A DNA stretch of 55,284 nucleotides, from assembly GCA_031257555.1 (NCBI GenBank), contig JAIROK010000131.1:1-55284 (forward strand), read 5' to 3'. Under the pieces are notes generated by a model that searched no databases, was not told the origin of the DNA, and worked only from the letters and a program-made list of their open reading frames with translations. Source of the DNA: Campylobacteraceae bacterium. GTDB lineage: Bacteria; Campylobacterota; Campylobacteria; Campylobacterales; Campylobacteraceae. Below, one piece after another: positions 16,432 to 55,284 of this stretch (within the stretch, counting starts at the first letter, position 1; each line of letters opens with the position of its first letter). The position numbers and the translations under genes were made by a program.

Positions 16432-16433
16432 TA

Positions 16434-17564
16434 CTAAACACTCGCTTTTATTAATTGTTTTTCTTGCATAAATTGTAAAATACGTTCGCAGGCTTTGCCG
16501 TCTCCGTATGGATTTAGAGCTTTTGCCATTTCGTTATAACAAGTCTGATTTGTAAGCAGCTCGGTTGCTTCATCTACGATGGTATTTGTGTTCGTTCCGA
16601 CCAATCTTACTGTTCCAGCTTTCAATGCTTCAACCCTTTCTGTTGTATTTCTCATAACAAGTACGGGTTTTCCAAGAGACGGAGCCTCCTCTTGTATACC
16701 GCCCGAATCCGTTAAAATAATATATGAGCGCATCATCAAGTAGACAAACGGTACATACTCTTGTGGTTCTATGAGATAGACATTGTTTAAACCGCTCAGA
16801 TATCGTTTAACAGGTTCTTGGACATTTGGATTTAGATGCACGGGATATACAAAATCAACATTTGAAAAATTTTTCGCAAGCGTTTTTATGGCAAGACAAA
16901 TATCCTCAAAACCATGTCCAAAATTTTCACGGCGATGACCGGTAATAAGTACTACTTTAGAACGCAAAAAATGAAATCTATCTTCTAACATTCTTTGAAG
17001 TTTCGGGGTTTTTTCTATCTTGTTTTTGATTAGCAAAAGAGCATCTATGACGGTATTGCCGGTTACAAATATAAAATCGTGAGAGACTTTTTCACTCAAC
17101 AGGTTTTCTCTTGCATAATATGTAGGCACAAAGTGATATTTCGTCAAAACGGCTGTCAATTTTCTGTTTGCCTCTTCAGGATATGGCGAATACAAATCCC
17201 CCGTGCGAAGTCCGGCTTCCACATGCGCAACATCTATCTTGTGGTAAAAAGCAGCTAAGCTTACAGCAAATGTTGTGGCTGTATCTCCATGCACAAAAAC
17301 GATATCCGGTCTATATTCACTCAAAACATGTGTGATTTTTGCCAAAATCGATGATGTTACGTCGGATAAACTCTGATGTGCTCTCATAATATCCAAATCA
17401 TAATCCGGACATATCTCAAATGTATTTAAAACTTGATCCAGCATACCTCTGTGCTGAGCTGAAACACAAACTTTATGTTCGATGCCATACTCTTTCATGC
17501 CTATAACTAATGGTGCCATTTTTATGGCTTCAGGTCTTGTCCCAAATACAATAAGTGTTTTCAA
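16434..17564 (-). CDS. wecB: UDP-N-acetylglucosamine 2-epimerase (non-hydrolysing)
   Basis: 376 aa with (M)KTLIVFGTRPEAIKMAPL, HVEAGLRT and DSGGIQEEAPSLGKPVLV motifs. It has a TTG start at 17564, and alignment to the family N-terminus supports this start. Confidence 0.92.
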   Translation of the reverse strand: MKTLIVFGTRPEAIKMAPLVIGMKEYGIEHKVCVSAQHRGMLDQVLNTFEICPDYDLDIMRAHQSLSDVTSSILAKITHVLSEYRPDIVFVHGDTATTFAVSLAAFYHKIDVAHVEAGLRTGDLYSPYPEEANRKLTAVLTKYHFVPTYYARENLLSEKVSHDFIFVTGNTVIDALLLIKNKIEKTPKLQRMLEDRFHFLRSKVVLITGHRRENFGHGFEDICLAIKTLAKNFSNVDFVYPVHLNPNVQEPVKRYLSGLNNVYLIEPQEYVPFVYLMMRSYIILTDSGGIQEEAPSLGKPVLVMRNTTERVEALKAGTVRLVGTNTNTIVDEATELLTNQTCYNEMAKALNPYGDGKACERILQFMQEKQLIKASV

Positions 17565-25690: not shown

Positions 25691-27085
25691 TCACTTATTT
25701 TTAGCAAAGTAGGACTCTATGCCATTTGCTATACCTGTTGTTAAAATTTGCTGAAATTTTTTATTAAACATTCTCTCTCTGTCTATCTTATCGGTAATAT
25801 ACCCTATTTCAAGCAAAACTGCAGGCATCTGTGCACCTGTAAGAACCCAAAACGGAGCTTCTCTTACACCGCCATCAACAACATTTTTGTAGCTTCGTCT
25901 AACTTCGGTTAAAATGTATTGCTGAATATCTATAGCAAGCTTGTGTGAAGCTATAATTTTTTCTCGATTTAAAAAATTTAAAAATGTCTGTTTTGAATAT
26001 AGATTCATCTCTTCGATGTCTGATTTGTTTTCAAGTTCTGCTGCATTTTTAGAACGGACAGAATCAGATGGTGATAAGAAAAAAGTCTCTATGCCTTGCC
26101 AAATGCCATTTTTACTTGTTTTAGGAGCAGCATTGGCATGAATTGATATAAATATATCCGCATTTTTGTCATTTGCTGTTTTTGTCCTGTCTTGTAATTT
26201 TAAATACACATCTTTTGAACGTGTATAAAACACTTTATGTCCTCTTGTTTCAAGCTCCGCACCCAATAAAAGTGCTATTTGCAAAACAACATCTTTTTCT
26301 AACTTTTTGTCGCTTACGGCACCTCCGTCTTTACCGCCATGTCCGGCATCGACAACTATTATCTTTTTTGGAATTTTAACTTTAGGAGTAGTTGTTGCAC
26401 TGATCGTTTTATCATCTTTTTTGGCAGAATTTGCTTGCGAAGCAGCAAATTCTTTTGCGGAAAATTTCAACTCTTTATCTTTTAAATTCAAAATTATGCT
26501 TATATCTTTTTCATGCTCAAAAACAACTCTTATGGTCTCTTTATCAAACTGTGAAATGCGAAAATCTTTTATGCCTTCTATTTTAGGAACAACAGCAGAA
26601 CTTGTCTTAATGCCTTTTATGTCATAAACATATCTTAAGCTTTTATCTTTGAGTTTTAAAAATTTTATTTTTTGCTTTTCGGTTTTTTTGTCAAATACAA
26701 GAACAGCGCTGCCATTATTAACTTTTATTTGTAGAAGTTTGACCAAAACATCTGGCGAAACTATTGTATCTTTTTTTTCTCTTTGCGCGGCAATCGCTGC
26801 AATACTTTGGTATTTTGGCAATTTATCAAGCTCTTTTTTATAAGTAGAGGTATCATAACTTAACTCTTCTGATATCTCTACAAGTCTTTTTAAAACTTCA
26901 TATTTTAAAGTATCATTTGCATCCATAATAGATTTGATATACAAATGCTTTAAATCATCGTAAATGTGCTCTTTTTCATTCCATGTTAAAATAGAAAATT
27001 TGCTGTCAAACTCATCAAGCAATACATTTTCAGCATGTACAAAACAGATAAGCAAAAGTAGATAAGCAAAAACTTTTTTTATCAT
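25691..27085 (-). CDS. amiA: N-acetylmuramoyl-L-alanine amidase (AMIN domain + Amidase_3)
   Basis: 464 aa with a signal peptide and an Amidase_3 domain (VVDAGHGGKDGGA, ISIHANA, GYITD...). Its start ATG shares 1 nt with the upstream gene's stop codon. Confidence 0.85.
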   Translation of the reverse strand: MIKKVFAYLLLLICFVHAENVLLDEFDSKFSILTWNEKEHIYDDLKHLYIKSIMDANDTLKYEVLKRLVEISEELSYDTSTYKKELDKLPKYQSIAAIAAQREKKDTIVSPDVLVKLLQIKVNNGSAVLVFDKKTEKQKIKFLKLKDKSLRYVYDIKGIKTSSAVVPKIEGIKDFRISQFDKETIRVVFEHEKDISIILNLKDKELKFSAKEFAASQANSAKKDDKTISATTTPKVKIPKKIIVVDAGHGGKDGGAVSDKKLEKDVVLQIALLLGAELETRGHKVFYTRSKDVYLKLQDRTKTANDKNADIFISIHANAAPKTSKNGIWQGIETFFLSPSDSVRSKNAAELENKSDIEEMNLYSKQTFLNFLNREKIIASHKLAIDIQQYILTEVRRSYKNVVDGGVREAPFWVLTGAQMPAVLLEIGYITDKIDRERMFNKKFQQILTTGIANGIESYFAKNK

Positions 27086-28173
27086 TATTCGCCGTTTGTC
27101 AGTTTATTCATTAATTCTTTAACGCTTGTAATCTCATTTAACTTATATCCGTTAGCTCCCGTAAAAAACAATCCCGTATCTTCTTTGCCAAAAAATGCAT
27201 CGGACAATCTATCGGCTATACAGTAACCAACTTCTTTTGCCTCTTTGCCTCTTTGGCATGGAGTTACGCAATTGCTGATACATTTGATAGCAGGTCCTTC
27301 TCTTTTATCGATTAAAGATATAAGATTTGTATGGATACCGCGCGCAGGATAACCAACGGGCGATTTTAAAAGATGTATATCTTCTTTTTTAGCTCTAATC
27401 AAAACTTGCTTAAAAACTTCATCTGCATCACACTCATGAGTTCCTATAAAGCGTGTTGCCATCTGTACTCCATCTGCGCCCAAACTCATGATATTATCAA
27501 TGTCATTTTTATCCCAAATACCGCCTGCTGCAATTATAGGAAAATCGCCCCACTCTTTTACTTCATCCTTCAATGGTTTTACAAGATTTTCAAGCTGATA
27601 CTCTTCCATGGCACACTGCTCATAAGTAAAGCCTTGGTGTCCGCCGCTAAGAGGTCCTTCAAGCACAACAGCATCAGGAACACGATTGTATCTTTGTACC
27701 CAGCGTTTGCAAATAATCTTTAAAGCTTTAGCTGAAGAGACTATCGGCACAAGCGCTATGTGCGGAAAATTTTTTGTAAGTTCGGGCAAATTTGTAGGAA
27801 GTCCAGCTCCTGAAATTATAATATCAATACCGGCTTTACAAGCATCAACTACAACTCTGCTATAATCATTAATCGCGCACATTATATTTACGCCAAGAGG
27901 TTTATCTCCGCAAATTTTGCGTGCATTTTGAACTATAACTTTTAAAGCCTCAAGGGAGTGTAGATTTTCAACATCAAACGGACGCGAATTTATAACCCTT
28001 TTGGCATATTTCAAATTTTCATAATATCCTGTTCCTATAGCGCTTATTACTCCAAGTCCGCCCTCTTTGCTTACAGTTCCTGCCAACCTGTCCCAACTCA
28101 CGCCTATTCCCATACCGCCTTGAACTATTGGAAACTTTATCTCGTATCTACCTATTTTAAGTGGTTTTAACAT
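27085..28173 (-). CDS. nitronate monooxygenase / NPD-family FMN oxidoreductase (FabK-like fold)
   Basis: 362 aa with PIVQGGMG, AAGGIWD and GADGVQMATRF motifs of the 2-nitropropane dioxygenase/enoyl-ACP reductase II family. Its composition is host-like. Confidence 0.8.
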   Translation of the reverse strand: MLKPLKIGRYEIKFPIVQGGMGIGVSWDRLAGTVSKEGGLGVISAIGTGYYENLKYAKRVINSRPFDVENLHSLEALKVIVQNARKICGDKPLGVNIMCAINDYSRVVVDACKAGIDIIISGAGLPTNLPELTKNFPHIALVPIVSSAKALKIICKRWVQRYNRVPDAVVLEGPLSGGHQGFTYEQCAMEEYQLENLVKPLKDEVKEWGDFPIIAAGGIWDKNDIDNIMSLGADGVQMATRFIGTHECDADEVFKQVLIRAKKEDIHLLKSPVGYPARGIHTNLISLIDKREGPAIKCISNCVTPCQRGKEAKEVGYCIADRLSDAFFGKEDTGLFFTGANGYKLNEITSVKELMNKLTNGE

Positions 28174-32602: not shown

Positions 32603-32834
32603 TTAAAAACTCTTGTATTTTGCGTAAATAGTGCATTATTTAATTAATAATAAGATATTTTTTATCCCATTGCTGCAAAAAGCAAATATTTCATTTTATT
32701 TTGCAATGCAAAGTATTTCTCAAGTCAACACAAACACCTCTTTTGCATCAGTGAAGTTTAAAATACTCAGCATGGCAAAACAAAATAGATATCCTCAAAT
32801 CTTAAAACAAACTAAGCAATTTTACCCGATTTCA

Positions 32835-34046
32835 TTATCTAATTTTAGAAAAGATGATAGCGCCGTTTGTGCCGCCAAATCCATAATTTGTTGTTAGTAC
32901 ATCGCGCAATTCTATCTTTCTGGCAATATTTGGCACATAATCCAAATCGCACTCCGAATCCGCTTCGCAGTAATTAATCGTCGGCGGAATAATATTTTGG
33001 TCTAATGCCATAATCGAAACAACTGCCTCTATAGCTCCGGTAGCGCCCAAACAGTGTCCGGTACTTCCTTTAATAGAGCTCACCGGAGGCACTTTGTCTC
33101 CAAAAGCCTTTTTTATAGCTCTTGTCTCATTTGCATCTCCTATAGGAGTGCTGGTGCCATGTGCGTTTATATAGTCAACACTTTCTAAGCCTGCCATTTT
33201 CAGTGCAGCTTGCATAGCTCTTACCGGACCATTCATATCCGGCGATGTTATATGTATAGCATCGGCACTCTCTCCAAAACCGGATATCTGAGCGTATATC
33301 TTAGCTCCTCTATTTACTGCGTGCTCATATGATTCAAGTATTAGTGCCGCCGCGCCTTCTCCCAATACAAAACCATCTCTGTTTTTATCAAAAGGTCTAG
33401 ATGCTGTTTTTGGGTCGTCATTTCTGGTTGAAAGCGCTTTGATTGTGCTAAATCCGCGCAATCCAAGTTCACATACAGTCGACTCACTGCCAACAGCAAC
33501 CATAACATCCGCACCACCAATCATTATGGTTTTTGCAGCTTGCGTAATAGCGTGCAGTCCTGCTGTGCATGCAGTAGTCGATGACAGATTTGGTCCTTTT
33601 AAATTAAAGTATATAGATGCGTAACCGGGTAGCATATTTGTAATTGTTCCTGGTATAAAGAATGGCGAAATCTTTTTATCATCAAAGTTTTTTTCCGCAT
33701 TCGTTTGAATCATAGGCAGTCCGCCTATGCCTGTAGCACCGCAAACTCCGATTCTATTGCAGTCAAACTCACTTGTGTTTAACTTAGCATCATTTAAGGC
33801 TTCTCTGATGGCATACAACCCTATATGAACAAATCTATCACATTTTTTGATATCTTTTGGATCCATTATAGATATTGGATCAAAACCTTTTATTTCACTT
33901 GCTATTTTTACGCTGTCTTTGCTCGCATCAAAATGCGTTATAAGATCCACTCCACTAATTCCATTCACCATAGCATTAAATGACTCTTTAGCGCTATTTC
34001 CTACGCCATTTATCATTCCAACTCCCGTTACTACGACTTTTTTCAT
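32835..34046 (-). CDS. fabF: beta-ketoacyl-ACP synthase II (FabF-type), probably a paralogue associated with the adjacent AT-rich cluster
   Basis: 403 aa with an intact Cys-His-His triad in canonical contexts (TACTAGLHAI, NAHGTSTPIGD, GSTGHCLGATG). Its G+C is like the host, and it lies 77 nt downstream of the FabZ-like gene on the same strand. Confidence 0.88.
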   Translation of the reverse strand: MKKVVVTGVGMINGVGNSAKESFNAMVNGISGVDLITHFDASKDSVKIASEIKGFDPISIMDPKDIKKCDRFVHIGLYAIREALNDAKLNTSEFDCNRIGVCGATGIGGLPMIQTNAEKNFDDKKISPFFIPGTITNMLPGYASIYFNLKGPNLSSTTACTAGLHAITQAAKTIMIGGADVMVAVGSESTVCELGLRGFSTIKALSTRNDDPKTASRPFDKNRDGFVLGEGAAALILESYEHAVNRGAKIYAQISGFGESADAIHITSPDMNGPVRAMQAALKMAGLESVDYINAHGTSTPIGDANETRAIKKAFGDKVPPVSSIKGSTGHCLGATGAIEAVVSIMALDQNIIPPTINYCEADSECDLDYVPNIARKIELRDVLTTNYGFGGTNGAIIFSKIR

Positions 34047-34123
34047 TTTATATTATACCTTTCTACTATTTTTTAACTATAAAAATTTATTTTGACACAA
34101 CTCGTATTTAATATTGCTTTTAA

Positions 34124-34561
34124 TCATTGCTTAAATGACACAATTAATTCTACTTCGGTAACAACATAATTGTCTACAAAAGCTTCTCCTCTAATTTTCC
34201 ATACATTCATATATTTTTCAATCAACATTACCTTGTATTTCAATTTATCTCCCGTAACAACATGTTTTCTAAATTTTGCTTTGTCTATTTTTAAAAGATA
34301 TATTTCTTTATCAATATTATTAATTTCATTTTCTAAACTATAAAAAATAAATATACCACTAGCCTGAGCCAATCCTTCAACGATTAAAACATCTGGATAT
34401 ATTGATTTTTTCTGAAAATATCCTTGAAATATTTCTTCATTTATAGTTATATTTTTATAGCATTTCAAAAAAATATTTTTTTGGATCTCAGTAACTCTAT
34501 CTACAAGTAAAAAAGGATATCTATGTGGTAAAACTTTTCTTATATCACTTATGTCCAACAT
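34124..34561 (-). CDS. FabZ-like hotdog-fold protein with catalytic His replaced by Tyr
   Basis: 145 aa with LPHRYPFLLVDRV and NEEIFQGYFQKKSIYPDVLIVEGLAQASG. This aligns with E. coli FabZ [29 protein letters not shown]. His54 becomes Tyr48 (codon 34418-34420), while the Glu of IVEG is retained. Confidence 0.8.
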   Translation of the reverse strand: MLDISDIRKVLPHRYPFLLVDRVTEIQKNIFLKCYKNITINEEIFQGYFQKKSIYPDVLIVEGLAQASGIFIFYSLENEINNIDKEIYLLKIDKAKFRKHVVTGDKLKYKVMLIEKYMNVWKIRGEAFVDNYVVTEVELIVSFKQ

Positions 34562-36111
34562 TAAAAATCCTCAATATTATTATTTTTTAGTATTTGTTTG
34601 TTTACTTTACCCATAATATTTCTTTCTAATTGATTGCAAAATATAAACTGTTTAGGTATTTTGTATTGAGCTAGCTGTTTTTCTAAATATTTTTTCAATA
34701 TTTTTTCATATTCTAACGTATTTATATGTTCATTAATATCGCATTCTATGTATGCAGTTACAACTTCTTCATTTTTCTCATTTAATTTGCCTACTACTGC
34801 CGAAAGCTTGACTATATCATGCTTATCAAGCAAATCTTCAATTTCTTTAGGATAAATATTCATCCCTTTAGATATTATTAAATCCTTTTCTCTTCCGACT
34901 AAAAATAAATATCCTTCTTCATCAAGATAGCCAAGATCACCGGTTTTTAAAAAATTATCTACGATTGTTTTTTTGGTCTCTTCAAAGTTGTTTAGATACC
35001 CCTTCATAATATTTTCACCAGCAACAAATACTTTTCCAATTTCTCTTATTGCTGCCTCTTTTTCATTTTGCATAATTTTAATCTTATAGCCAGGGAATGG
35101 CAACCCTACTGAATTAAGTTTTTGTTTTTTTCTTGGATTTAAAGAAACAGTAGGCCCAGCTTCCGTTAAACCGTAAGCTTCTAACATATCTGCTCCTTTA
35201 AATCTCTTTTGCATTGTTTCTAAAATTTCACTTTGCAGAGGTGACCCGCCTGAAACGAATGCATTTATTTTATTAAAAATAAAAAAATACCACGGTAAAT
35301 TTGCTTTTGATAAGGCTTTATATACTTCTGGCACTCCTAACACTATAGTAACACGCTTTAATAAAATTTCTTTTATTATATTATTAAAAGGCTTTACAGA
35401 TTTTATTATTACAACGCTTGAAAAACTATATAAAGGCAAAATAAGGCCTATAGTAAAAGTAAAAGAGTGAAACATGGGAAGAAAAACTATAAATCTATCT
35501 TTAGATTTAATATTTGCATGTTTTGAACCAGCATCAGCATTAGATAAGATATTTCTATTTGTTAAAATTACACCTTTTGGCTTACCTGTTGTACCAGAAG
35601 TATACATGATCACAGCTTCGTCATCTAACGCTTTTTCACCTCTAGGTATATAACAAATATCGTACTTATCATAAGTTTTATCATTTAAAATAGAATCCTT
35701 ATAAATAATTTTTGAAATTTTTGCTTTGATATTATCGTCTATATTCCTTTCAAAAATATTCGACATTATTATATTTTTAATATCAGCATCATTGATTATA
35801 TATTCAATTTCTCTTGAAGTCAAAAAAGTATTTATTGGAATTGCTATTGCATTTATCTTAGAAATAGCAAATATGGAAACGATATATTCAATACTGTTTT
35901 CCATCAATATCGCAACTCTATCACCACTTTTAATATTTTCAGAAGATAAATGTGCAGCAAAACATTTGGAGTATTTATTAAGCATACTATATGATATTTT
36001 TTTATTTTGATAATATAATGCTATTTTTTTATCATGTTTATTTTTATAAATAATATCATATAAGGTATTACATTTATAGATACTACTATTGCTATTTATT
36101 TTTATTGTCAT
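34561..36111 (-). CDS. AMP-dependent synthetase/ligase (acyl-CoA / acyl-ACP synthetase family)
   Basis: 516 aa with MYTSGTTGKPKGV, GYGLTE-like (AYGLTEAG) and GDLGYLDEEGYLFLVGREKDLIISKG motifs. Confidence 0.85.
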   Translation of the reverse strand: MTIKINSNSSIYKCNTLYDIIYKNKHDKKIALYYQNKKISYSMLNKYSKCFAAHLSSENIKSGDRVAILMENSIEYIVSIFAISKINAIAIPINTFLTSREIEYIINDADIKNIIMSNIFERNIDDNIKAKISKIIYKDSILNDKTYDKYDICYIPRGEKALDDEAVIMYTSGTTGKPKGVILTNRNILSNADAGSKHANIKSKDRFIVFLPMFHSFTFTIGLILPLYSFSSVVIIKSVKPFNNIIKEILLKRVTIVLGVPEVYKALSKANLPWYFFIFNKINAFVSGGSPLQSEILETMQKRFKGADMLEAYGLTEAGPTVSLNPRKKQKLNSVGLPFPGYKIKIMQNEKEAAIREIGKVFVAGENIMKGYLNNFEETKKTIVDNFLKTGDLGYLDEEGYLFLVGREKDLIISKGMNIYPKEIEDLLDKHDIVKLSAVVGKLNEKNEEVVTAYIECDINEHINTLEYEKILKKYLEKQLAQYKIPKQFIFCNQLERNIMGKVNKQILKNNNIEDF

Positions 36112-36536
36112 AATATTATTCCTATAATTTGTTTAATCGCTACAAATGAGATAAAAATAAATGAAATCACCATGCTAAATGTCAATAATTTTAGGTATAT
36201 TTTTGACCTTGCAATATTGATCTTATAAAAATAAAAAATCTGCCATAAAGCTCTCCATGCCCAAAAAACTGCAATTAATAACCAAAACCACAATAAGTTA
36301 TTTGAATTATCCGATATTTGTTTTCCATAAATTATAAATAACATGCCAATTACAAGCAATAATAATGCCACTACCCATAATAGAGTATTGATCAATCTAG
36401 AATTCAAATATGTTACTAATTCAATATTTTTGCTCCATTCTTTAAATAATTTTTTCCACACAAAAGGTATATGCATTATTCCTAGAATAATTTTTAAAAA
36501 ACCACAAATATACAATAGCAAAATAAGATCTTTCAA
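36108..36536 (-). CDS. small integral membrane protein (about 4 TM helices), function unknown
   Basis: 142 aa, very hydrophobic and Trp-rich (LLWFWLLIAVFWAWRALWQIFYFY). An ATGA overlap with the AMP-ligase gene indicates translational coupling. Confidence 0.6.
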   Translation of the reverse strand: MKDLILLLYICGFLKIILGIMHIPFVWKKLFKEWSKNIELVTYLNSRLINTLLWVVALLLLVIGMLFIIYGKQISDNSNNLLWFWLLIAVFWAWRALWQIFYFYKINIARSKIYLKLLTFSMVISFIFISFVAIKQIIGIIL

Positions 36537-36538
36537 AT

Positions 36539-36925
36539 TTAATCCTTTTTAAAGTTTTTTAAAAAAAGATTGTAATATTTATCTGGCATAATAGCTGGTT
36601 TTCCATTTTCAACATACACCAACCTAATATCCATTTCAAAAATTTTTATTCCATTTCTGGTTATAAACTGTTTAGCCAAAACTGATGTTTTTTTTAATAT
36701 AGATATATAACCACCAAGCTTAAGCATATCACCAAGATAAGCAGGCTGCATATAGTTTGCATTTATTGACCTAATAACCAAAGCACCTTTTTCTGATTTC
36801 ATATCAATATCGCTTTCAAAAAATAATTCGCTTCTGGCTCTATCGCAATATTTAATATAATTTGTATGATAAACTATGCCCAAAGCATCAGTATCTTCAT
36901 AGTAAATTCTAATATTCATATTCAC
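36539..36925 (-). CDS. 4HBT/YbgC-type hotdog acyl-CoA (acyl-ACP) thioesterase
   Basis: 128 aa with IRIYYEDTDALGIVYHTNYIKY, the YbgC-family N-terminal catalytic-Asp motif. Confidence 0.8.
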   Translation of the reverse strand: MNMNIRIYYEDTDALGIVYHTNYIKYCDRARSELFFESDIDMKSEKGALVIRSINANYMQPAYLGDMLKLGGYISILKKTSVLAKQFITRNGIKIFEMDIRLVYVENGKPAIMPDKYYNLFLKNFKKD

Positions 36926-36943
36926 TCCTTTATTTTAATTTCA

Positions 36944-37693
36944 TTACATATATAATCCACCATTAATTTTCATGGTTTCTCCAGTAATATATTTTGAATA
37001 ATCACTTAGCAAAAAAGCTACACCATAAGAAACGTCTTCTGCTCTACCGAAATCACCAAGTGGGATTTTGGATATAAAATTATCTTTAACGCTTTTAGGA
37101 AGGTTAAATGTCATGTCTGTATGTACTAATCCAGGTGTTATTGAGTTAAAACGAATATTTCTTCTAGCTCCTTCAAGGGCTAATGTTTTTGTCATAGCAA
37201 TAATTGCTCCTTTTGATGCTGAATAATTTACTTGTCCTATATTTCCAATTTCTCCCGCTATGGAAGATATATTTACCACGCTACCAAACTTTTTCTTTGA
37301 CATAATTTTCAAAGCTTCTTTAGATGTTAAAAAACAAGAAGTTGTATTTATGCTTAGCACATCTGTAAAATTGTCCATATCCATTGATATAGTTAGACTA
37401 TCTTTAGTTATTCCGGCATTATTGACAAGATAATCTAGCTCTTTATCAATTTTACAAATATAATCAAATGCTTCTTTTACATTATTTTCATTAGATGCAT
37501 CAAATTGTATAAGTTCAATATTTGGATTATGAATTTCTTTCTTGATTTTATCTCTAAGTTCAATTGCATTTTTTTCACTTTTATTATAGTTTATCCATAC
37601 TTTTAAACCAAAACCAGCCAACGTTAATGCTATATTTGCACCAATTCCTCTTCCTGCTCCTGTGATAAGGACATTTTTCCCACTAAATTTCAT
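36944..37693 (-). CDS. 3-oxoacyl-ACP reductase (FabG-type SDR)
   Basis: 249 aa with TGAGRGIG cofactor motif, NNAG, and the catalytic S...YSASK tetrad. Confidence 0.88.
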   Translation of the reverse strand: MKFSGKNVLITGAGRGIGANIALTLAGFGLKVWINYNKSEKNAIELRDKIKKEIHNPNIELIQFDASNENNVKEAFDYICKIDKELDYLVNNAGITKDSLTISMDMDNFTDVLSINTTSCFLTSKEALKIMSKKKFGSVVNISSIAGEIGNIGQVNYSASKGAIIAMTKTLALEGARRNIRFNSITPGLVHTDMTFNLPKSVKDNFISKIPLGDFGRAEDVSYGVAFLLSDYSKYITGETMKINGGLYM

Positions 37694-38436
37694 ATATCTT
37701 CCTTGCTAATATATTTTTGAAGAGGAGTATCATATCTATTATCATAGCTACCATTTCTTTTTAAAAGTTTTTTGTAATATATATTTTGTGCAATAAAATT
37801 ATGAATTATGAATGATTTTTTTGACATCTTCAATGGTTTTGCATAGTTTTGAATAAAATGATCATCAAATACGCCATATTTTCCGAAATATATTCCAAGA
37901 TTTTTCAAATCTGTTGTAACTTTTTTAAAATTTAAATGCTTACCAAAATCTTCATCAACTAGCTCTAATAAATTTAGAAATGCTTTTTTAAAACTACTTT
38001 GTTGAATTTTTTTAAATATACTGGCTATTGGTCCAGCACATTTTAATGCAGTTCCATTATATGAAACATTTATATGCCCACAAAAACTTTTAAGATGTTC
38101 AATTAACATTTTAGATCGTTCACTATTTATATACATTTGTTGTATAAAAAAAGAAAATTTTTTTTCATTAATGACATAACTATCTAAATTTTCCATCATT
38201 TTTCTAACGTTCCCAGGCATGGAATGATAAAATACAGGGAACGCAAACAATGTATTTTCGCACTCGTTAATCTTATTTTTTATAATATTTATTTTTTTAC
38301 AGGAAGCATTACCAATATATTCCATGATACATTCATTACCATTAATGCTTTCAAAGCCTTCAATAAAAAAACTTAGATAATAACTTGTATTTCCAAGATT
38401 TTTTTTTGGCGAACCATTAATTATTAATAATTTCAT
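37690..38436 (-). CDS. flavodoxin-fold NAD(P)H-dependent FMN reductase-like protein (no Cys cluster)
   Basis: 248 aa with an N-terminal MKLLIINGSPKKNLGNT phosphate-binding loop typical of the FMN_red/Flavodoxin_2 families, plus a long unique C-terminal extension. Confidence 0.6.
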   Translation of the reverse strand: MKLLIINGSPKKNLGNTSYYLSFFIEGFESINGNECIMEYIGNASCKKINIIKNKINECENTLFAFPVFYHSMPGNVRKMMENLDSYVINEKKFSFFIQQMYINSERSKMLIEHLKSFCGHINVSYNGTALKCAGPIASIFKKIQQSSFKKAFLNLLELVDEDFGKHLNFKKVTTDLKNLGIYFGKYGVFDDHFIQNYAKPLKMSKKSFIIHNFIAQNIYYKKLLKRNGSYDNRYDTPLQKYISKEDI

Positions 38437-38965
38437 AATAAGCCTCTTTTGCGCTAAATTCTCTTATATTTTTAATAAAGACAGGTTTTGTGAACATACT
38501 ATTTGATGCTTCAGTCATTAAATTATTTAATATTTCAAAATCTAATTTTGATTCATTTGACATAAAATCAAATAAAAAAGATGTTTTTGGATATTTTTTA
38601 TATCTTTTTTGATGTCTTGCTATTCCATTAATATATTCGAATTTAATATTTAACAATGGAAGTAATTTATCTAACATAGTTTTTAATTTACTATTTATAA
38701 AGCCATATTTTATTGGGGATATAAAAATAACAAATTCTGATTCAATATATATTTTGTTTATGATATTTGTATCATCTTTCACAATACATAAACCTGGCGT
38801 TTTTATCCAACAAAATAATTCACCAACACAATATTTGATATTATAATCTTTTAAATTTATAACTTTTACCAAATGATTCTTTCCTAATAACTTTAGAAGC
38901 TCTTCAATAAATATCGTTATAACTGAATTATCACATTCATCAGAATTAAATATTGTAATATGCAT
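38417..38965 (-). CDS. degenerate flavodoxin-fold protein (paralogue of the two neighbours)
   Basis: 182 aa with the same beta-alpha-beta start (MHITIFNS) but no GSPK loop. It has a partial Cys motif C-x5-C-x7-C followed by VKDD, which aligns with CIIKDD of the 256-aa paralogue. Confidence 0.45.
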   Translation of the reverse strand: MHITIFNSDECDNSVITIFIEELLKLLGKNHLVKVINLKDYNIKYCVGELFCWIKTPGLCIVKDDTNIINKIYIESEFVIFISPIKYGFINSKLKTMLDKLLPLLNIKFEYINGIARHQKRYKKYPKTSFLFDFMSNESKLDFEILNNLMTEASNSMFTKPVFIKNIREFSAKEAYYEIINN

Positions 38966-38974
38966 AAGTTTTCC

Positions 38975-39745
38975 TTAATTCAACTTCATAAAAGAATACT
39001 TTTCAAAATCAAAGTTTTTAGGATGTATTTTAAATTTTTGACATATTTTCCAAAAAATGTTATGCCCATTGATAAATACATTCGGCTCAACAATATCTTC
39101 GGTCATTTTTGCAATAATATTTTTTGATATAAAACCATTCGTAACTAATTCGCTGCCACCTTGCGTATAAGAATTAAGAATTTCCTCTTGTAATTTTAAA
39201 TTAATTGGTAATTGAAAAAATTCCGATTCTGGTCTATAGATTTCTGCAATAATATCTACTTTCAACAATAAAAAAAACTCTTTAAAATAATATGATGAAA
39301 TCTTAAAAGGACTTTGACCAACCATGTTACCTACCATAAATATTATTGCTGGTGGTAATTTTAAATTTATAGTTTTATAAGTCTTTTTAGTTGCTTTATC
39401 ATACTCTTTGTAGGGTTCATGAGTTATCATGCTTAATCTATCTAGAAAAGATTTCATTGCGCCATTGAACATCAAAGCATATAGCGGAGAAGCATAAAGT
39501 ACATAATTAGAATTAATTATTTTTTGATATATAGCATTAAAATCGTCTTTTATAATACAACTACCAATATTTTGATACCAACATGCAAAACATCCATTGC
39601 ATGTTTTATTAATTATTTCGCTTAAGAAAATATAATTTATAGAAACATCACTTGCGCTTTGCATTCCGCGCATAAAATAATCCAGAAATAATCCAGTTTT
39701 TCCATTTTTACCTTTTGGACTAGAATTTATAATTGTTATTTTCAT
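38975..39745 (-). CDS. iron-sulfur flavoprotein (Isf)-like FMN reductase
   Basis: 256 aa with MKITIINSSPKGKNGKT and CNGCFACWYQNIGSC (C49-x2-C52-x2-C55-x7-C63, nt 39557-39601). This is the compact 4Fe-4S motif described for Isf-family flavoproteins. It is followed by IIKDDF...YASPLY. Confidence 0.65.
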   Translation of the reverse strand: MKITIINSSPKGKNGKTGLFLDYFMRGMQSASDVSINYIFLSEIINKTCNGCFACWYQNIGSCIIKDDFNAIYQKIINSNYVLYASPLYALMFNGAMKSFLDRLSMITHEPYKEYDKATKKTYKTINLKLPPAIIFMVGNMVGQSPFKISSYYFKEFFLLLKVDIIAEIYRPESEFFQLPINLKLQEEILNSYTQGGSELVTNGFISKNIIAKMTEDIVEPNVFINGHNIFWKICQKFKIHPKNFDFEKYSFMKLN

Positions 39746-39976
39746 AGAGCTACTTTCTTATAATTTAATTGAAAAATTCCATTATTAATTATCTTAACCA
39801 CTTCATTTATTGCCATTCTTTATACTATTAAATAATATTATCTTAATATTTATATATTATACCATGTATAATTAACTTATATGAATATAATTTACAATTT
39901 ATTATGATATATTCTTTATATTTATCAATAATATAACTATTAATTTTCAGTTCTATAAATGCTTTATTTAAAACAA

Positions 39977-41110
39977 TCATGCAATTTCCACAATTGATGC
40001 AGCAAATACATTGCCCATGCCACTTCCTAATAATAATATATTTTTAATATTCATTTTTTTATCATAAGATAGAAAATTATGATCTAGTTCTGTTCTATTT
40101 TTAATTCCACGCACAAATCCACTTTTTGCATCTTTTAATGCAATATCTAATTCTACAATTGCATTTGATCCTAATGTATGTCCAATTTCAGGCTTATAAC
40201 TTGTTGCGATAAACTCTTTACCAAAACAATCTCTAATTGCATTACCTTCAGAGATAGAATTAGATTTACTTCCTGTTCCATGAGTTTTGATAAAAGATAT
40301 ATCACTTTTTAATATACCACTTGATTTTAATACCTCATTAATAACTTTTTTGTAACCATCACCATTTTTTGATTGCCCAAAAGGATTTTCAAACTTTTCC
40401 ATACCTAAAACAGTTTTATTCAAATACGCTATTGGAGTATTATTGGATACTTTTATTGATCTTTCATTCTCTATCAATACATAGCCAACGCCATGACCTA
40501 ATCTAAAACTATGATTTTGCGAATCAAAAGAACTTGGCTTTAAACCGCTTTTTTCATCTCTTTCAGATAAAGATGCATTTAACATACCAAATAGCTCTAA
40601 AACCAATGTATTTACTTGATCATCAATTCCAATAACCAAAACTCTATCGACAATATTATTTTTTATCAATAATTCTGCTTCAAAAAATGCTTTATAGCCA
40701 CTTACGCAAGCAGTAGCATCTGTAGTCAAATAATCATGCCAACCTAATTTATTAGCAATTTTTCCACTCAAAATATTTATTAACATAAAAAATGGGGTTT
40801 TAATATTATAATCTGGTTCAACATGGGACATAAGTCTACCAGAACCTGCCCATTCTGATGTCCCAGATGCAACAATAATAGCATTTCTTCCTTCTTTTAA
40901 TGCAAGTTCATTAAAAAAACTTACTTCCTCTAAATCAAAAAGTTCATTGTACATATTTTCACATGTATACCTATATCCAAACTTTATACCATCTAAAAAA
41001 GATGGTATAAAGTTGACATACTGAGGATATCTTTCACCTCTAATACATGTATTTGTTGTATACAAAGCTTTGGTACGAGTTATTGCCACCAAGGAATTGT
41101 TATCTTTCAT
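39977..41110 (-). CDS. divergent beta-ketoacyl synthase (KAS I/II-type thiolase fold)
   Basis: 377 aa with the active-site Cys in TDATACVSGYKAF and His residues in KTHGTGSKSNS and EIGHTLGSNA. It lacks the usual VVITGxG N-terminus. Confidence 0.8.
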   Translation of the reverse strand: MKDNNSLVAITRTKALYTTNTCIRGERYPQYVNFIPSFLDGIKFGYRYTCENMYNELFDLEEVSFFNELALKEGRNAIIVASGTSEWAGSGRLMSHVEPDYNIKTPFFMLINILSGKIANKLGWHDYLTTDATACVSGYKAFFEAELLIKNNIVDRVLVIGIDDQVNTLVLELFGMLNASLSERDEKSGLKPSSFDSQNHSFRLGHGVGYVLIENERSIKVSNNTPIAYLNKTVLGMEKFENPFGQSKNGDGYKKVINEVLKSSGILKSDISFIKTHGTGSKSNSISEGNAIRDCFGKEFIATSYKPEIGHTLGSNAIVELDIALKDAKSGFVRGIKNRTELDHNFLSYDKKMNIKNILLLGSGMGNVFAASIVEIA

Positions 41111-41396
41111 TGGCTATTTCTTTGCATGTTTTATATGTTGTTTTATTTTCTATCAAAAAATCAATAATTATTTTTATATTAGGATTTGGATCGGTAAGTT
41201 TTTCTTTGAAAACTTTATCATTTATTCCATATATTTCTCCTAGTTTTAAGAAAACCATAATAAAATCAAAACTATCTAAACCAGTATCTTTCAATTCTGA
41301 GTCTTCGCTGGTTAATTCTTTAAAATTACTCTTATCATAAATTTCCTCCTTAATTAAATAATTAATTACTGCCAATATTTCTTGTCTATTTTTCAT
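41100..41396 (-). CDS. acyl carrier protein (cluster-specific)
   Basis: 98 aa with a GLDSFDF phosphopantetheine-attachment motif (Ser42) at the start of helix II. It overlaps the KS gene by 11 nt. Confidence 0.8.
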   Translation of the reverse strand: MKNRQEILAVINYLIKEEIYDKSNFKELTSEDSELKDTGLDSFDFIMVFLKLGEIYGINDKVFKEKLTDPNPNIKIIIDFLIENKTTYKTCKEIANER

Positions 41397-41397
41397 A

Positions 41398-42285
41398 TTA
41401 ATTTACCTTTTTTATTTTTTTATTATAGTATTCAGAAAATTCATAAAATAAATCTCGCTTAGAAATTGGTAATTCACCAAAAATCTGAATTAAAGTTTCA
41501 TATTTGTCTTCTAAAACTTTTTTATATGTACTTGTTGTAAAAAACCTTGATACATCATTTGCGCCTTGAACAAAGTAATTACTAACTTCGGCCTGGTGAA
41601 TAAAATGGCTACTTATCACCGCATCTGTAAAATTTTTCCTATGAACATCTTTTGACTTAACCATTCTTGAAATTATTTTTATCCAAGCAGCTTTATGTTT
41701 TATTTCATCTTTTTTAATATTGATTATTATTTTTCTAAAATTATTACTTTCAATATGGCTTTCTATACTGCTATATAATTCAATATTAGTGATTTCACCC
41801 AAGAGATAAGACAGTAGTGATTCGTATGCGTTTTTGTAAAGAGTATTAGTTTCATACATTAGTTCATACAAATGATTGCCTGTTGCATTTTCTATGAAAC
41901 TTTTACCATTTTTTACCAAACTCGCTAATTCTTTTAAGATAAATCCATGTCTCATCTCTTCGTAAGTAATAGTACAGAAACCATATAAATTACTTTCATA
42001 AAAATCACATCCAAGCTCTTTTGGAAGTTTGCGAACTAAATCTTGATGTTGTATCGTAATTCCTATAGCAGAAAGCTCTCCATCTCCAATGCTATCAATC
42101 AATCTAACGATTTCTAGATCATTGTCCGTCAAATTATTTACTATGTCAACATAATCATAATTATTAACATCCCACTTATGATCACCAAGTTTTAGCGACT
42201 TTAATATGTCATATACGCCATGCACTTTTATCTCCTTAATTTTTATTAAACATTCAATTTTTGCTCTTATGGCTACAAAAAACAT
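41398..42285 (-). CDS. ferritin-like di-iron carboxylate protein (putative acyl-ACP desaturase/oxygenase-type enzyme)
   Basis: In 295-aa ORF numbering the ligand pattern is E70 ... E110-x2-H113 (YEEMRH, nt 41947-41961) ... E164 ... E194-x2-H197 (KDEIKH), the classical E/EXXH/E/EXXH pattern. The true start is probably GTG 42225 (AAGGAG 6 nt upstream), because ATG 42285 has no RBS. Confidence 0.55.
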   Translation of the reverse strand: MFFVAIRAKIECLIKIKEIKVHGVYDILKSLKLGDHKWDVNNYDYVDIVNNLTDNDLEIVRLIDSIGDGELSAIGITIQHQDLVRKLPKELGCDFYESNLYGFCTITYEEMRHGFILKELASLVKNGKSFIENATGNHLYELMYETNTLYKNAYESLLSYLLGEITNIELYSSIESHIESNNFRKIIINIKKDEIKHKAAWIKIISRMVKSKDVHRKNFTDAVISSHFIHQAEVSNYFVQGANDVSRFFTTSTYKKVLEDKYETLIQIFGELPISKRDLFYEFSEYYNKKIKKVN

Positions 42286-42353
42286 TGATTGAATTTTATT
42301 TAATTATAGATTTGTCATGTGAAACTAAACTCTTTAAAAATAAAATGATGTAT

Positions 42354-42366
42354 TATATATATATAT
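42354..42366. repeat. (TA)6 tract upstream of the di-iron/ACP/KS operon
   Basis: Read directly as tatatatatatat at 42354-42366, inside the 665-nt non-coding region. Confidence 0.85.
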
Positions 42367-42950
42367 TTATTATCAATTAATTAATTTTATTTGAGTCATA
42401 AATTTCATTAGTAAAAATTAAGTTTAACTATTATTTTTGAAGATTTTTATGAGTTCTATATTGTTTGTTATTGGAAGAATGAATCTGTTATTTTTACTAG
42501 AGTTAATAATGCAATGCATATATTTTATACTGCTAACTTATTGTAATTACAGCAATAACAATAGTACCATGTCGTGTAATTTCAATTTGCGATAACAAAA
42601 TCAAAAAATTTATAATTTTAAATTTTAAAACATTTCATATCACCCATATTTCGCTTACAATAATAAAGAAGAAAAATTGCAATAACAGACGATTGTGTTT
42701 ACAGAAATAAAAAATTTCAATTTATAGTTGAAAATTTGAAGTTTAGGAGTGCTACGTGTTATAAACTAACTATTTGTCTACACTTTGTCTATAATAAGCA
42801 AAAACAATTATTGCAGCATCTCCATAGAAAGCAGATTGTTTTGCTATATCTACAATGGTAAAAGATTTAACAGATTGTTCTTACTCTACTTATTAAAACC
42901 CACAATGACACATTGCCGTGCAAGATATAGAGATAAAAACTTATCTAAAG

Positions 42951-54070: not shown

Positions 54071-55284
54071 ATGTCTGATTTCACTCCGGCACTAAACTAC
54101 TTTAATTATCAGTTACTCATTAAACAGTTGCTTTTTACGCCTATAACCAACAATCCAAATCAAGAGATAATTTATAAAAACAATTTTCATATGACTTACG
54201 CCGAGTTTCGCAAACGTGTCTGCAAACTTGCCAATGTTCTTACAAAGCTTGGTGTCAAAAAAGGTGACACGGTAGCCATTATGGATTATGATTCGCATAG
54301 GTATTTGGAGTGTTATTTTGCCATACCTATGATTGGCGCGGTCATGCATATGGTAAATATAAGACTAAGTCCAGAACAGATACTCTACACAATCGACCAC
54401 GCGCAAGATGATGTTTTACTCATACATCATGATTTTATACCCATACTTGAACAAATAAGAGGCAGAGTAGATACTATCGGTAACTACATTTTGATAGCTG
54501 ACGGCAATGAATCAACACAAAGCATAATCCCTTTCGTAGGTGAGTATGAACAGTTGTCGGAAGAAGCAGACGATAAATTTGATTTTCCGGATTTTGATGA
54601 AAACACACGCGCAACTACATTTTACACGACAGGCACCACAGGAATGCCAAAAGGCGTATATTTTACTCATCGCCAATTGGTACTTCATACTATGGGCACA
54701 TTGCTTAGTCTCTCTTCTTACGCCGAACATGCCAATTTTAATCAAAGCGATGTATACATGCCTATAACTCCAATGTTTCACGTGCATGCATGGGGTATTC
54801 CTTATGTGGCTACATTTATGGGTGTAAAACAGGTGTACCCAGGTAAATACATACCTGATGTTTTGCTTGATTTGATACAAAAAGAGGGAGTAACATTTTC
54901 ACATTGTGTGCCGACAATACTCCATATGTTATTAAATTCTCACAAAATAGACGAGGTTGATTTGAGCAGATGGAAAGTTATAATAGGCGGCGCTTCTTTG
55001 TCTCCGGCTCTTGCAATAGCTGGATTAAACAAAGGAATAGATATATTTTCAGGGTATGGAATGAGCGAAACTTGCCCGATTTTATCTTTAGCAAGATTAG
55101 ACAAAGAGACGCTTGCAAAAGATTATGAAGAGCAGGCAAAAATCAGAACTAAAACAGGCACCCCCCTTGGTTTGGTAGAGATGAAGATAGTAGATGAAGA
55201 GATGAATGAAATCACGCATGACGGCGAAAGTACGGGCGAAATAATTGTACGCGCACCTTGGCTTACGGCAGGATATCTGAAAGA
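54071..55284 (+). CDS. long/medium-chain fatty-acid--CoA ligase, N-terminal 404 codons (3' end outside the window)
   Basis: This ORF is not in the supplied track because it runs off the end. ATG 54071 is preceded by AAGGA, and the frame stays open to 55284. My translation includes YTTGTTGMPKGVYFTHRQL (AMP-binding motif I) and GYGMSET. Confidence 0.85.
   Translation, partial: MSDFTPALNYFNYQLLIKQLLFTPITNNPNQEIIYKNNFHMTYAEFRKRVCKLANVLTKLGVKKGDTVAIMDYDSHRYLECYFAIPMIGAVMHMVNIRLSPEQILYTIDHAQDDVLLIHHDFIPILEQIRGRVDTIGNYILIADGNESTQSIIPFVGEYEQLSEEADDKFDFPDFDENTRATTFYTTGTTGMPKGVYFTHRQLVLHTMGTLLSLSSYAEHANFNQSDVYMPITPMFHVHAWGIPYVATFMGVKQVYPGKYIPDVLLDLIQKEGVTFSHCVPTILHMLLNSHKIDEVDLSRWKVIIGGASLSPALAIAGLNKGIDIFSGYGMSETCPILSLARLDKETLAKDYEEQAKIRTKTGTPLGLVEMKIVDEEMNEITHDGESTGEIIVRAPWLTAGYLK

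Follow-up and report, generated by a model that had tools for sequence, protein, structure and literature searches.

A coupled trio of flavodoxin-fold paralogues in a putative lipid or polyketide island of a Campylobacteraceae bacterium, and its possible role in C=C bond reduction

Iron-sulfur flavoproteins (Isf) are electron-transfer proteins defined by a compact [4Fe-4S] motif, CX2CX2CX5-7C (PMC3164229). In Flavonifractor plautii the flavone reductase FLR, an ene-reductase with FMN as cofactor, saturates flavones at C2=C3, a C=C bond conjugated to C=O (PMC7862272). The enzyme forms homodimers whose interface holds FMN and substrate, and combines a WrbA-like core with a C-terminal tail that helps substrate binding; its reaction is reversible (naringenin to apigenin), and it cannot use NAD(P)H directly, the electron chain being unresolved (PMC7862272). 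FMN and a [4Fe-4S] cluster are also found together in FabX of Helicobacter pylori, which dehydrogenates acyl-acyl carrier protein (acyl-ACP) and occurs in Campylobacterota (PMC8626469). Here we describe three consecutive genes, flv1, flv2 and flv3, in a stretch of 55,284 nucleotides (the window) that makes up positions 1 to 55,284 of contig JAIROK010000131.1 (assembly GCA_031257555.1) of a Campylobacteraceae bacterium. Their products are flavodoxin-fold paralogues encoded within an island of fatty-acid or polyketide type. Our tentative reading is that the trio could be a heteromeric Fe-S/FMN ene-reductase that acts on enoyl intermediates of the pathway, as the trans-acting enoyl reductase of the island.

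Paralogy, motifs and fold of the Flv proteins

The genes for Flv1 (38975-39745; 256 aa, the complete paralogue), Flv2 (38417-38965; 182 aa, truncated) and Flv3 (37690-38436; 248 aa, divergent) follow one another on the minus strand, and are followed on the same strand by a gene for a FabG-type 3-oxoacyl-ACP reductase (36944-37693; NF004199, 335.9 bits with a cut-off of 301). A preliminary description of this DNA had reported the three open reading frames (ORFs), a flavodoxin-type pattern at the start of each product and a tight coupling of the genes, all of which hold: by ORF coordinates, Flv1 and Flv2 are separated by a gap of 9 nt, Flv2 and Flv3 overlap by 20 nt, and the end of Flv3 overlaps the start of FabG by 4 nt.

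In translation, Flv1 has MKITIINSSPKGKNGKT, with an FMN phosphate loop (SSPKGKNGKT), and carries the compact motif C49-x2-C52-x2-C55-x7-C63 (CNGCFACWYQNIGSC); all four cysteines are invariant in 9 homologues. Flv2 has C46-x5-C52-x7-C60, with Glu49 at the position where the second Cys is expected. Its N-terminal loop is degenerate (FNSDECDN), the phosphate loop being lost, and it keeps the flavodoxin core without the C-terminal domain. The Flv2 orthologue of a related locus, L001, has the same Cys motif, the Cys2-to-Glu change included, and the same degenerate loop. In Flv3 the phosphate loop (INGSPKKNLGNT) is retained, as is the C-terminal domain; the segment with the Cys motif is deleted and a 16-aa insertion is present. 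The Isf motif CX2CX2CX5-7C is found in Flv1 and in neither Flv2 (C-x2-E-x2-C-x7-C) nor Flv3. This is the distribution that the preliminary description had read from the three proteins, namely CX2CX2CX7C in the first, an incomplete Cys motif and no phosphate loop in the second, and a loop with no Cys motif in the third. Judged by their motifs, Flv2 is probably an Fe-S-only subunit and Flv3 probably an FMN-only subunit.

The common descent and fold of the three proteins, also put forward at that stage, are borne out by profile comparison, family matches and a model of Flv1. Compared with a Flv1-family profile built on an alignment of 70 sequences, Flv2 matches over residues 1-152 (hhalign 99.8%, E 1.7e-30) and Flv3 over its full length (hhalign 99.2%, E 9.4e-20). 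Pairwise BLASTP gives 33% identity over 104 aa between Flv1 and Flv2 (E 3e-13) and places the similarity of Flv1 and Flv3 in the N-terminus only. With PF03358 (FMN_red), the scores are 49.8 bits for Flv1, 27.7 for Flv2 and 23.1 for Flv3; the first two pass the Pfam gathering threshold of 24 and the third falls marginally under it. The Pfam matches of the Flv proteins are to flavodoxin-type families only, and not to the short-chain dehydrogenase/reductase (SDR) or nitronate monooxygenase (NMO) TIM-barrel families that include enoyl reductases; in NCBIfam no model matched them, nor the SCP2-fused Flv protein examined (see below). By these comparisons Flv1, Flv2 and Flv3 are true paralogues of one flavodoxin-fold family.

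The AlphaFold model of Flv1, made with the same 70-sequence alignment (pLDDT 95.9, pTM 0.91), shows a flavodoxin-like alpha/beta core followed by a helical domain at the C-terminus (helices 183-238). The preliminary description had put forward a PF03358 search and the modelling of single proteins as checks on the fold; the search and, for Flv1, the model gave the flavodoxin-like answer. Foldseek returned 255 PDB matches to the model at E <= 1e-3. All of the 50 top matches listed are FMN proteins with a flavodoxin-like fold, for the most part of azoreductase/quinone-reductase type; named matches are AzoR-type azoreductases (one with ubiquinone-1 bound), SP1951, FLR, SsuE and EmoB. FLR (7D38) ranks 28th, with a moderate superposition (TM 0.54/0.48). 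Among solved structures, FLR is the nearest to Flv1 and Flv2 in sequence, and the family profile finds it in the PDB with an E value of 6e-24, far above other solved structures. The match spans the Cys motif, at which FLR reads CTGCTAC...C, and covers Flv1 residues 13-104 in phmmer and FLR residues 1-110 with the family profile. Membership of the FLR type has been defined as at least 30% identity and at least 80% coverage relative to F. plautii FLR (PMC7862272); by this definition Flv1 is a distant relative of FLR and not a member. FLR itself carries the Isf-like CxxCxxC...C pattern and may be an overlooked Fe-S enzyme whose cluster was lost during aerobic purification; word searches of the article that describes FLR turned up no reference to such a cluster (PMC7862272).

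An exhaustive search for the family to which the trio belongs, made with the family profile, retrieved 15,346 representatives with E < 1e-3, 582 of them with E < 1e-30. Motifs were counted in 158 sequences, comprising 150 listed family representatives and the homologues from a separate search: the complete Cys motif (CX2CX2CX5-8C) is present in 150 of the 158, with x7 spacing in 144. The Cys2-to-Glu change seen in Flv2 (C-x-G-E-x-x-C-W) recurs in three unrelated sequences, P0020, P0082 and P0132, which otherwise look intact. Because the change recurs independently, the Glu suggests a Cys3-Glu-ligated cluster rather than decay or a dead site. SCP2 lipid-binding domains, one or two in number and N- or C-terminal, are found in 55 of the 150 listed representatives (37%); these fusions suggest that the family is lipid-directed. 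Another family member, P0011 (438 aa; locus L048, 408-1724), is a tandem fusion of two family domains. Its N-terminal half has the Cys motif and its C-terminal half has the phosphate loop with the Cys segment deleted, a pairing that mirrors Flv1 or Flv2 plus Flv3.

Flv1 orthologues are without exception accompanied by a second Flv paralogue. Orthologues of Flv2 and Flv3 are found only in the window and in L001, and just 3 homologues of Flv3 were found in 5.8 billion clusters. Since the site losses are complementary, the genes coupled, the pairing reproduced in a natural fusion and a partner of Flv1 constant, the evidence favours a heteromeric Fe-S/FMN enzyme. The hetero-oligomeric Fe-S/FMN module of the preliminary description accords with the complementary losses, the coupling and the fusion, while its assembly and its cofactors are features that we infer from sequence.

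The gene cluster and its relatives

Close relatives of the trio keep the same company. Wherever the contig allowed a judgement, Flv1 homologues of at least 40% identity, all Flv2 homologues and all Flv3 homologues lie inside a cluster with ketosynthase (KS) and ACP genes. Distant relatives (27-30% identity; Geobacteraceae, Clostridium, Bacteroidales) stand alone, with no KS or ACP gene nearby, and are annotated just as "flavodoxin family protein". Among GTDB species genomes there was no close Flv1 homologue (best 29%), and tblastn against plasmids gave nothing beyond generic "flavodoxin family protein" matches in Clostridium. It had been argued earlier that finding the genes generally beside unrelated neighbours would make the trio a stand-alone detoxification module; that description was rejected for the close subfamily, found only within the KS/ACP cluster family, and holds for relatives at 30% identity or less.

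The cluster family recurs in other Campylobacterota, for example in a metagenome-assembled genome (MAG) of Sulfurovaceae. Its conserved core consists of the genes for a ferritin-like di-iron protein (DiFe), an ACP, a divergent ketosynthase (KSa) and a hydrolase of metallo-beta-lactamase (MBL) type, then FabG in most loci, to which zero to three Flv genes are added. The ACP gene is always between those of DiFe and KSa. Five architectures were seen. In type A (the window and L001) the Flv trio is accompanied by FabG, a 4HBT thioesterase, a hydrophobic protein, a ligase, FabZ and a second ketosynthase, KSb. In type B (L036, L037 and L002) a Flv1 orthologue of 253 aa comes directly after KSb, and a 369-aa Flv is then followed by 4HBT. 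Type C (L040, L041, L042, L044 and L054) has a single Flv with an N-terminal SCP2 domain (SCP2-Flv, ~384 aa) directly upstream of a PfaA-like synthase of ~2,480 aa. Type D (L038) lacks both Flv and a second KS or polyketide synthase (PKS), and reads DiFe-ACP-KSa-MBL-FabG-4HBT. In type E (L045-L047) Flv256-Flv367-4HBT form a divergent operon. Flv1 orthologues in the related loci measure 253-256 aa. Their partner of 367-369 aa ends in an SCP2-like domain, which scores 24-31 bits with a custom HMM against at most 9.4 bits in 900 shuffles.

The type C synthase has the domain order KS, acyltransferase, ketoreductase and dehydratase, with a weak phosphopantetheinyl transferase match; a scan of 2,254 of its residues detected no enoyl reductase domain. 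An example is L054 (12438-17858), in which genes for a TetR regulator, a LolA-like protein and an MMPL transporter lie upstream, and this suggests an exported lipid as the product.

Flv genes thus adjoin either KSb (L002, L036) or the PfaA-like PKS that lacks an enoyl reductase (L040, L042, L044, L054), and in the loci examined they are nowhere adjacent to DiFe. The presence of Flv tracks that of a second KS or a PKS; the correlation is complete, with a small number of loci.

The MBL hydrolase (~205 aa, glyoxalase-II-type, THGHYDH) follows KSa in every related locus that covers the region. The window is the only locus without it, and has in its place an AT-rich non-coding gap of 231 nt between KSa and Flv1 (39746-39976). 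Since every covering relative has the MBL gene at this position, the window has, by this comparison, lost it. The preliminary description had assigned the di-iron gene to a neighbouring operon; the separation amounts to merely this gap, the site of the hydrolase gene in related loci. A split flavodiiron protein, with the MBL and flavodoxin parts encoded apart, was considered and rejected: the MBL protein has the zinc-hydrolase signature HxHxDH and not the di-iron HxExDH, its best match is hydroxyacylglutathione hydrolase, and the window is without the gene. L001 carries, at 15619-16983 between FabZ and KSb, an additional gene for a 454-aa FAD_binding_3 protein with a weak geranylgeranyl-reductase match.

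In the window the whole cluster, from KSb through DiFe plus an upstream leader of 665 nt (ORF-based), occupies 10.3 kb of low-GC DNA (32619-42950) inserted between an M23-peptidase gene and pyrH. Its order on the minus strand is DiFe, ACP, KSa, gap, Flv1, Flv2, Flv3, FabG, thioesterase, hydrophobic protein, ligase, FabZ and KSb. The window's PyrH shares 90% identity or more with the PyrH of "Campylobacteraceae bacterium" MAGs. In the close relatives L051 and L052 the M23-peptidase gene is separated from pyrH by 163 nt, and blastn break points against close relatives define 32619-42950 as extra DNA in the window. GC content is 24-27% from ~34 to 42 kb against ~35% in the flanks, and rises to ~39% at the KSb end (32-34 kb), so that the island may be composite. 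The related clusters of L001 and L038, too, fall below their own flanks in GC content. Given the absence of the insertion from close relatives, its low GC and the low GC of these related clusters, the entire cluster, KSb included, is on sequence grounds a horizontally acquired island. No boundary repeats, integrase or tRNA were seen at 32619-42950; scans of the island for repeats, promoters and terminators gave counts at the level of shuffled sequence in this AT-rich DNA, and are uninformative.

The remaining genes of the island, all on the minus strand, are those of a synthetic pathway. KSb (32835-34046) is a FabF-type ketosynthase (TIGR03150 fabF, 536 bits). A housekeeping fabF was considered for it and rejected, as KSb lies inside the inserted segment and has orthologues in the clusters of L001, L036, L002 and L045. 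Next come a FabZ-type 3-hydroxyacyl-ACP dehydratase (34124-34561; NF000582, 157.8 bits, cut-off 113) and an AMP-forming acyl ligase resembling fatty-acid-CoA ligases (34561-36111; PF00501, 265 bits; NF004837, 444 bits), which probably activates a starter acid. A second AMP-ligase-like ORF, on the plus strand at 54071-55282, runs to the end of the window and is weakly similar to the island ligase (55.8 bits); its position is unrelated to the island. A 142-aa hydrophobic protein (36108-36536), probably membrane-spanning, has no Pfam match and a homologue in L001 only. It is thus confined to the two loci whose Flv proteins are without SCP2, and could serve for anchoring or lipid handling in place of that domain. 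The hotdog thioesterase (4HBT, YbgC-like; 36539-36925) has counterparts that directly follow an Flv gene in L002, L036 and L045. On the far side of the gap, KSa (39977-41110), with ~23% identity to FabF, has an intact Cys-His-His triad and Lys, and the ACP (41100-41396) has the serine motif GLDSFD and a weak match to TIGR00517.

The last gene, DiFe (41398-42225), encodes a protein of 275 aa if translation begins, as is likely, at a GTG codon at residue 21 of the 295-aa ORF ending at 42285. No Pfam or NCBIfam family matches it. In 19 homologues E50, H60, E89/E90-x-x-H93, E144, E149 and D173/E174-x-x-H177 (275-aa numbering) are invariant, as is an extra motif, HxxHQAE. The candidate metal ligands E50, E90-x2-H93, E144 and E174-x2-H177 fit the set E, ExxH, E, ExxH. 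A DiFe profile gave marginal ferritin-like matches in the PDB (desaturase 2uw1 at E 1.5), and a metagenome scan with it found 4 loci only. The AlphaFold model is all-helical (pLDDT 84.5), and its best Foldseek matches are soluble acyl-ACP desaturases, aldehyde-deformylating oxygenase (ADO), R2lox and PaaA/C (TM ~0.5, E ~5e-3). The most fitting description of DiFe is that of a new di-iron oxidase of ferritin-like type near lipid-acting ones; its substrate is probably the acyl-ACP of the adjacent ACP gene.

The cluster had been noted to lack FabI, FabK, FabL and FabV, and Pfam and NCBIfam scans of the cluster proteins indeed gave no match to any of them; the SDR gene of the cluster scores as FabG (NF004199) and not as an enoyl reductase. 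A FabX orthologue of the NMO family (27085-28173, minus strand, 362 aa) lies 4.4 kb outside the island in the conserved backbone. It scores 531 bits to H. pylori FabX (PDB 7e1q) and 117 bits to the FabK model, for which the cut-off is 453; it is kept in relatives without the island and is the sole NMO-family gene found.

Candidate functions of the trio

With a ligase, an ACP, two KS, FabG, FabZ, a thioesterase and a desaturase-like di-iron enzyme, the island would serve lipid or polyketide biosynthesis, and the trio would supply the subunits of one heteromeric iron-sulfur flavoprotein of the FLR/Isf branch of the flavodoxin-like fold. A low-potential donor (ferredoxin, flavodoxin, possibly quinol) would pass electrons singly to [4Fe-4S] clusters held by the compact Cys motif of Flv1 and by the Cys-Glu-Cys-Cys variant of Flv2. 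FMN, placed where subunits meet and bound by the phosphate loops of Flv1 and of Flv3, would collect these electrons. FMNH- would then transfer a hydride to an alpha,beta-unsaturated acyl thioester formed by FabG and FabZ, at the beta-carbon, as modelled on the action of FLR at C2=C3 of flavones. The electron donor and the substrate in this scheme are, like the cofactors and the heteromer, predictions.

We rank C=C reduction first because of the relationship to FLR, the SCP2 fusions, the adjacency of Flv genes to KS or PKS genes and never to DiFe, their tracking of a second KS or PKS, and the lack of an enoyl reductase in the cluster and in the PfaA-like synthases. Several points weigh against it. 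Sequence identity to FLR does not extend beyond the N-terminal ~110 residues. The loci compared for co-occurrence are few (about 8 architectures) and phylogenetically related, and Flv presence correlates only partially with that of a dehydratase: the pair-type loci L036 and L037 have no dehydratase gene in the cluster (L045-type contigs do not reach far enough for this to be judged). The geranylgeranyl-reductase-like flavoprotein of L001, whose gene is not in the window, could itself perform C=C reduction. The host very probably has an enoyl reductase of its own fatty-acid synthase (FAS), which could serve the island. Clusters of FAS type without an enoyl reductase are normal, as with the aryl-polyene clusters. 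The missing enoyl reductase is therefore not in itself anomalous, since the host presumably has such a reductase and polyene-type clusters need none. Finally, three subunits and two Fe-S sites exceed the needs of a simple enoyl reductase.

The preliminary description had offered two roles, replacement of the enoyl reductase or electron supply to the di-iron enzyme. FLR, SCP2 and KS/PKS adjacency now lend support to the former, and sequence alone cannot separate the two. If Flv were the dedicated reductase chain of DiFe, electrons from NAD(P)H, ferredoxin or quinol would pass one at a time, via FMN semiquinone or [4Fe-4S], to a di-iron centre that needs 2-4 of them per O2-dependent turnover. 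We regard this as rather unlikely, though worth serious weight. The two E/ExxH sets of DiFe, and a model nearest to acyl-ACP desaturases, ADO and R2lox, speak for it; acyl-ACP desaturases and ADO rely on external one-electron donors, and a flavodoxin-like protein, NrdI, partners the ferritin-like NrdF. Every Flv1-group gene found belongs to the cluster family, with DiFe present on all contigs long enough to show it (that of L002 is too short). A protein with Fe-S and FMN would also be a natural converter between two- and one-electron steps, and Isf is an electron-transfer protein (PMC3164229). However, L038 has DiFe with no Flv at all, so that DiFe can work without it; Flv is never adjacent to DiFe, and in L045 forms a separate divergent operon with the thioesterase. 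It is difficult to account for SCP2 fusions if Flv only carries electrons, and FLR, the closest characterised relative, itself reduces a substrate.

The same cofactors could work in the oxidative direction, as in FabX, with FMN taking a hydride from a saturated acyl-ACP to leave an enoyl or isomerised double bond and the Fe-S clusters draining electrons to O2 or to quinone, perhaps SCP2-bound in relatives. The reversibility of FLR (PMC7862272) and the acyl-ACP dehydrogenation by FMN and [4Fe-4S] in FabX (PMC8626469) provide precedents, the nearby FabX orthologue of the host indicates that the chemistry exists in the lineage, and the structural neighbours of Flv1 include quinone-binding azoreductases. 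Such a role is improbable: the island already has FabZ for double bonds as well as the desaturase-like DiFe, FabX is of an unrelated fold (NMO TIM barrel), and the sequence gives no sign of direction. A general redox or detoxification set, that is, a quinone, O2 or H2O2 reductase of Isf/WrbA/AzoR type carried as a passenger of the island or protecting those of its enzymes that are sensitive to O2 or use it, would fit the relatives of 27-30% identity that stand alone, and Methanosarcina Isf reduces O2 and H2O2. The close homologues, however, are all in the KS/ACP cluster, the trio is translationally coupled to FabG, and related loci place Flv beside KSb or the PKS, which makes this role, too, improbable.

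Should the trio indeed reduce enoyl intermediates, it would be a mechanistically different type of enoyl reductase, with a flavodoxin fold, Fe-S and FMN, and independent of NAD(P)H. Enoyl-ACP reductases are antibiotic targets and define chain saturation in FAS and PKS systems; to our knowledge only a handful of classes exist (FabI, FabL, FabV and FabK). It is possible, if doubtful, that the Flv heteromer represents a new class of enoyl-ACP or trans-acting PKS enoyl reductase, driven by ferredoxin, flavodoxin or quinol through [4Fe-4S] and FMN, with SCP2 in relatives holding the acyl chain. Lipid synthesis would then be tied to the low-potential ferredoxin/flavodoxin economy of Campylobacterota. 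As a corollary, FLR-type ene-reductases in general would be Fe-S enzymes, which would explain why FLR does not use NAD(P)H, and the shared Cys motif offers a testable idea for the electron chain of this gut flavone reductase. Independently of the enoyl reductase assignment, the loci define an uncharacterised mobile biosynthetic cluster family with a novel di-iron enzyme of desaturase-like type, an ACP of its own, a divergent KS, a glyoxalase-II-type hydrolase and SCP2-fused Fe-S flavoproteins, to which some loci add a PfaA-like PKS and MMPL export genes.

Comparison with known systems

The fold and the motif are already known from the Isf/FLR superfamily. What appears to be new is the recruitment of this family to an island of FAS/PKS type, the split of cofactor sites over three paralogues, the SCP2 fusions and the cluster family itself with its novel di-iron enzyme. 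The preliminary description knew of no described FAS or PKS system with such an Fe-S/FMN trio, and a literature search gave no description of flavodoxin-fold or SCP2-fused enoyl reductases, nor of this cluster type.

DiFe resembles desaturases, ADO and R2lox in its predicted ferritin-like four-helix bundle and E/ExxH x2 ligands, and its top Foldseek matches are all proteins with fatty acyl chains, acyl thioesters or fatty aldehydes as ligands or substrates. Compared with acyl-ACP desaturases it is shorter (275 aa) and adds HxxHQAE, and is a structural neighbour rather than a family member.

As to enoyl reductases that act in trans (PfaD, PksE-type, LovC), the type C SCP2-Flv has the position expected of such an enzyme, directly upstream of a PfaA-like synthase without an enoyl reductase. 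PfaD and PksE are NMO/FabK-type TIM barrels and LovC is a medium-chain dehydrogenase/reductase; we know of none with a flavodoxin fold or an Isf-type Fe-S motif. FabX, FadH and the clostridial enoate reductases share with the proposed enzyme the logic of FMN and [4Fe-4S] at the alpha,beta position of acyl thioesters, but are built on TIM barrels of NMO or old yellow enzyme type, in contrast to the flavodoxin-like fold of Flv.

The Isf proteins of Methanosarcina and other anaerobes have FMN, and share with Flv1 the flavodoxin-like fold and the compact Cys motif. Isf is a stand-alone homo-oligomer of ~190-aa subunits with electron-transfer or O2/H2O2-reducing roles, whereas Flv1 and Flv3 have an additional helical C-terminal domain of ~90 aa, Flv2 and Flv3 each lack one cofactor site, and the genes lie within a biosynthetic operon. 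FLR of F. plautii (PDB 7D38-7D3B) likewise joins a flavodoxin/WrbA-like N-terminal domain, with the same Cys segment, to a C-terminal extension. It differs in that its C-terminal domain appears to be unlike that of Flv1, and in being a homodimer with a dietary aromatic substrate, encoded outside FAS/PKS clusters. Set beside FLR, the trio has as its own features three diverged paralogues, split cofactor sites and a lipid cluster.

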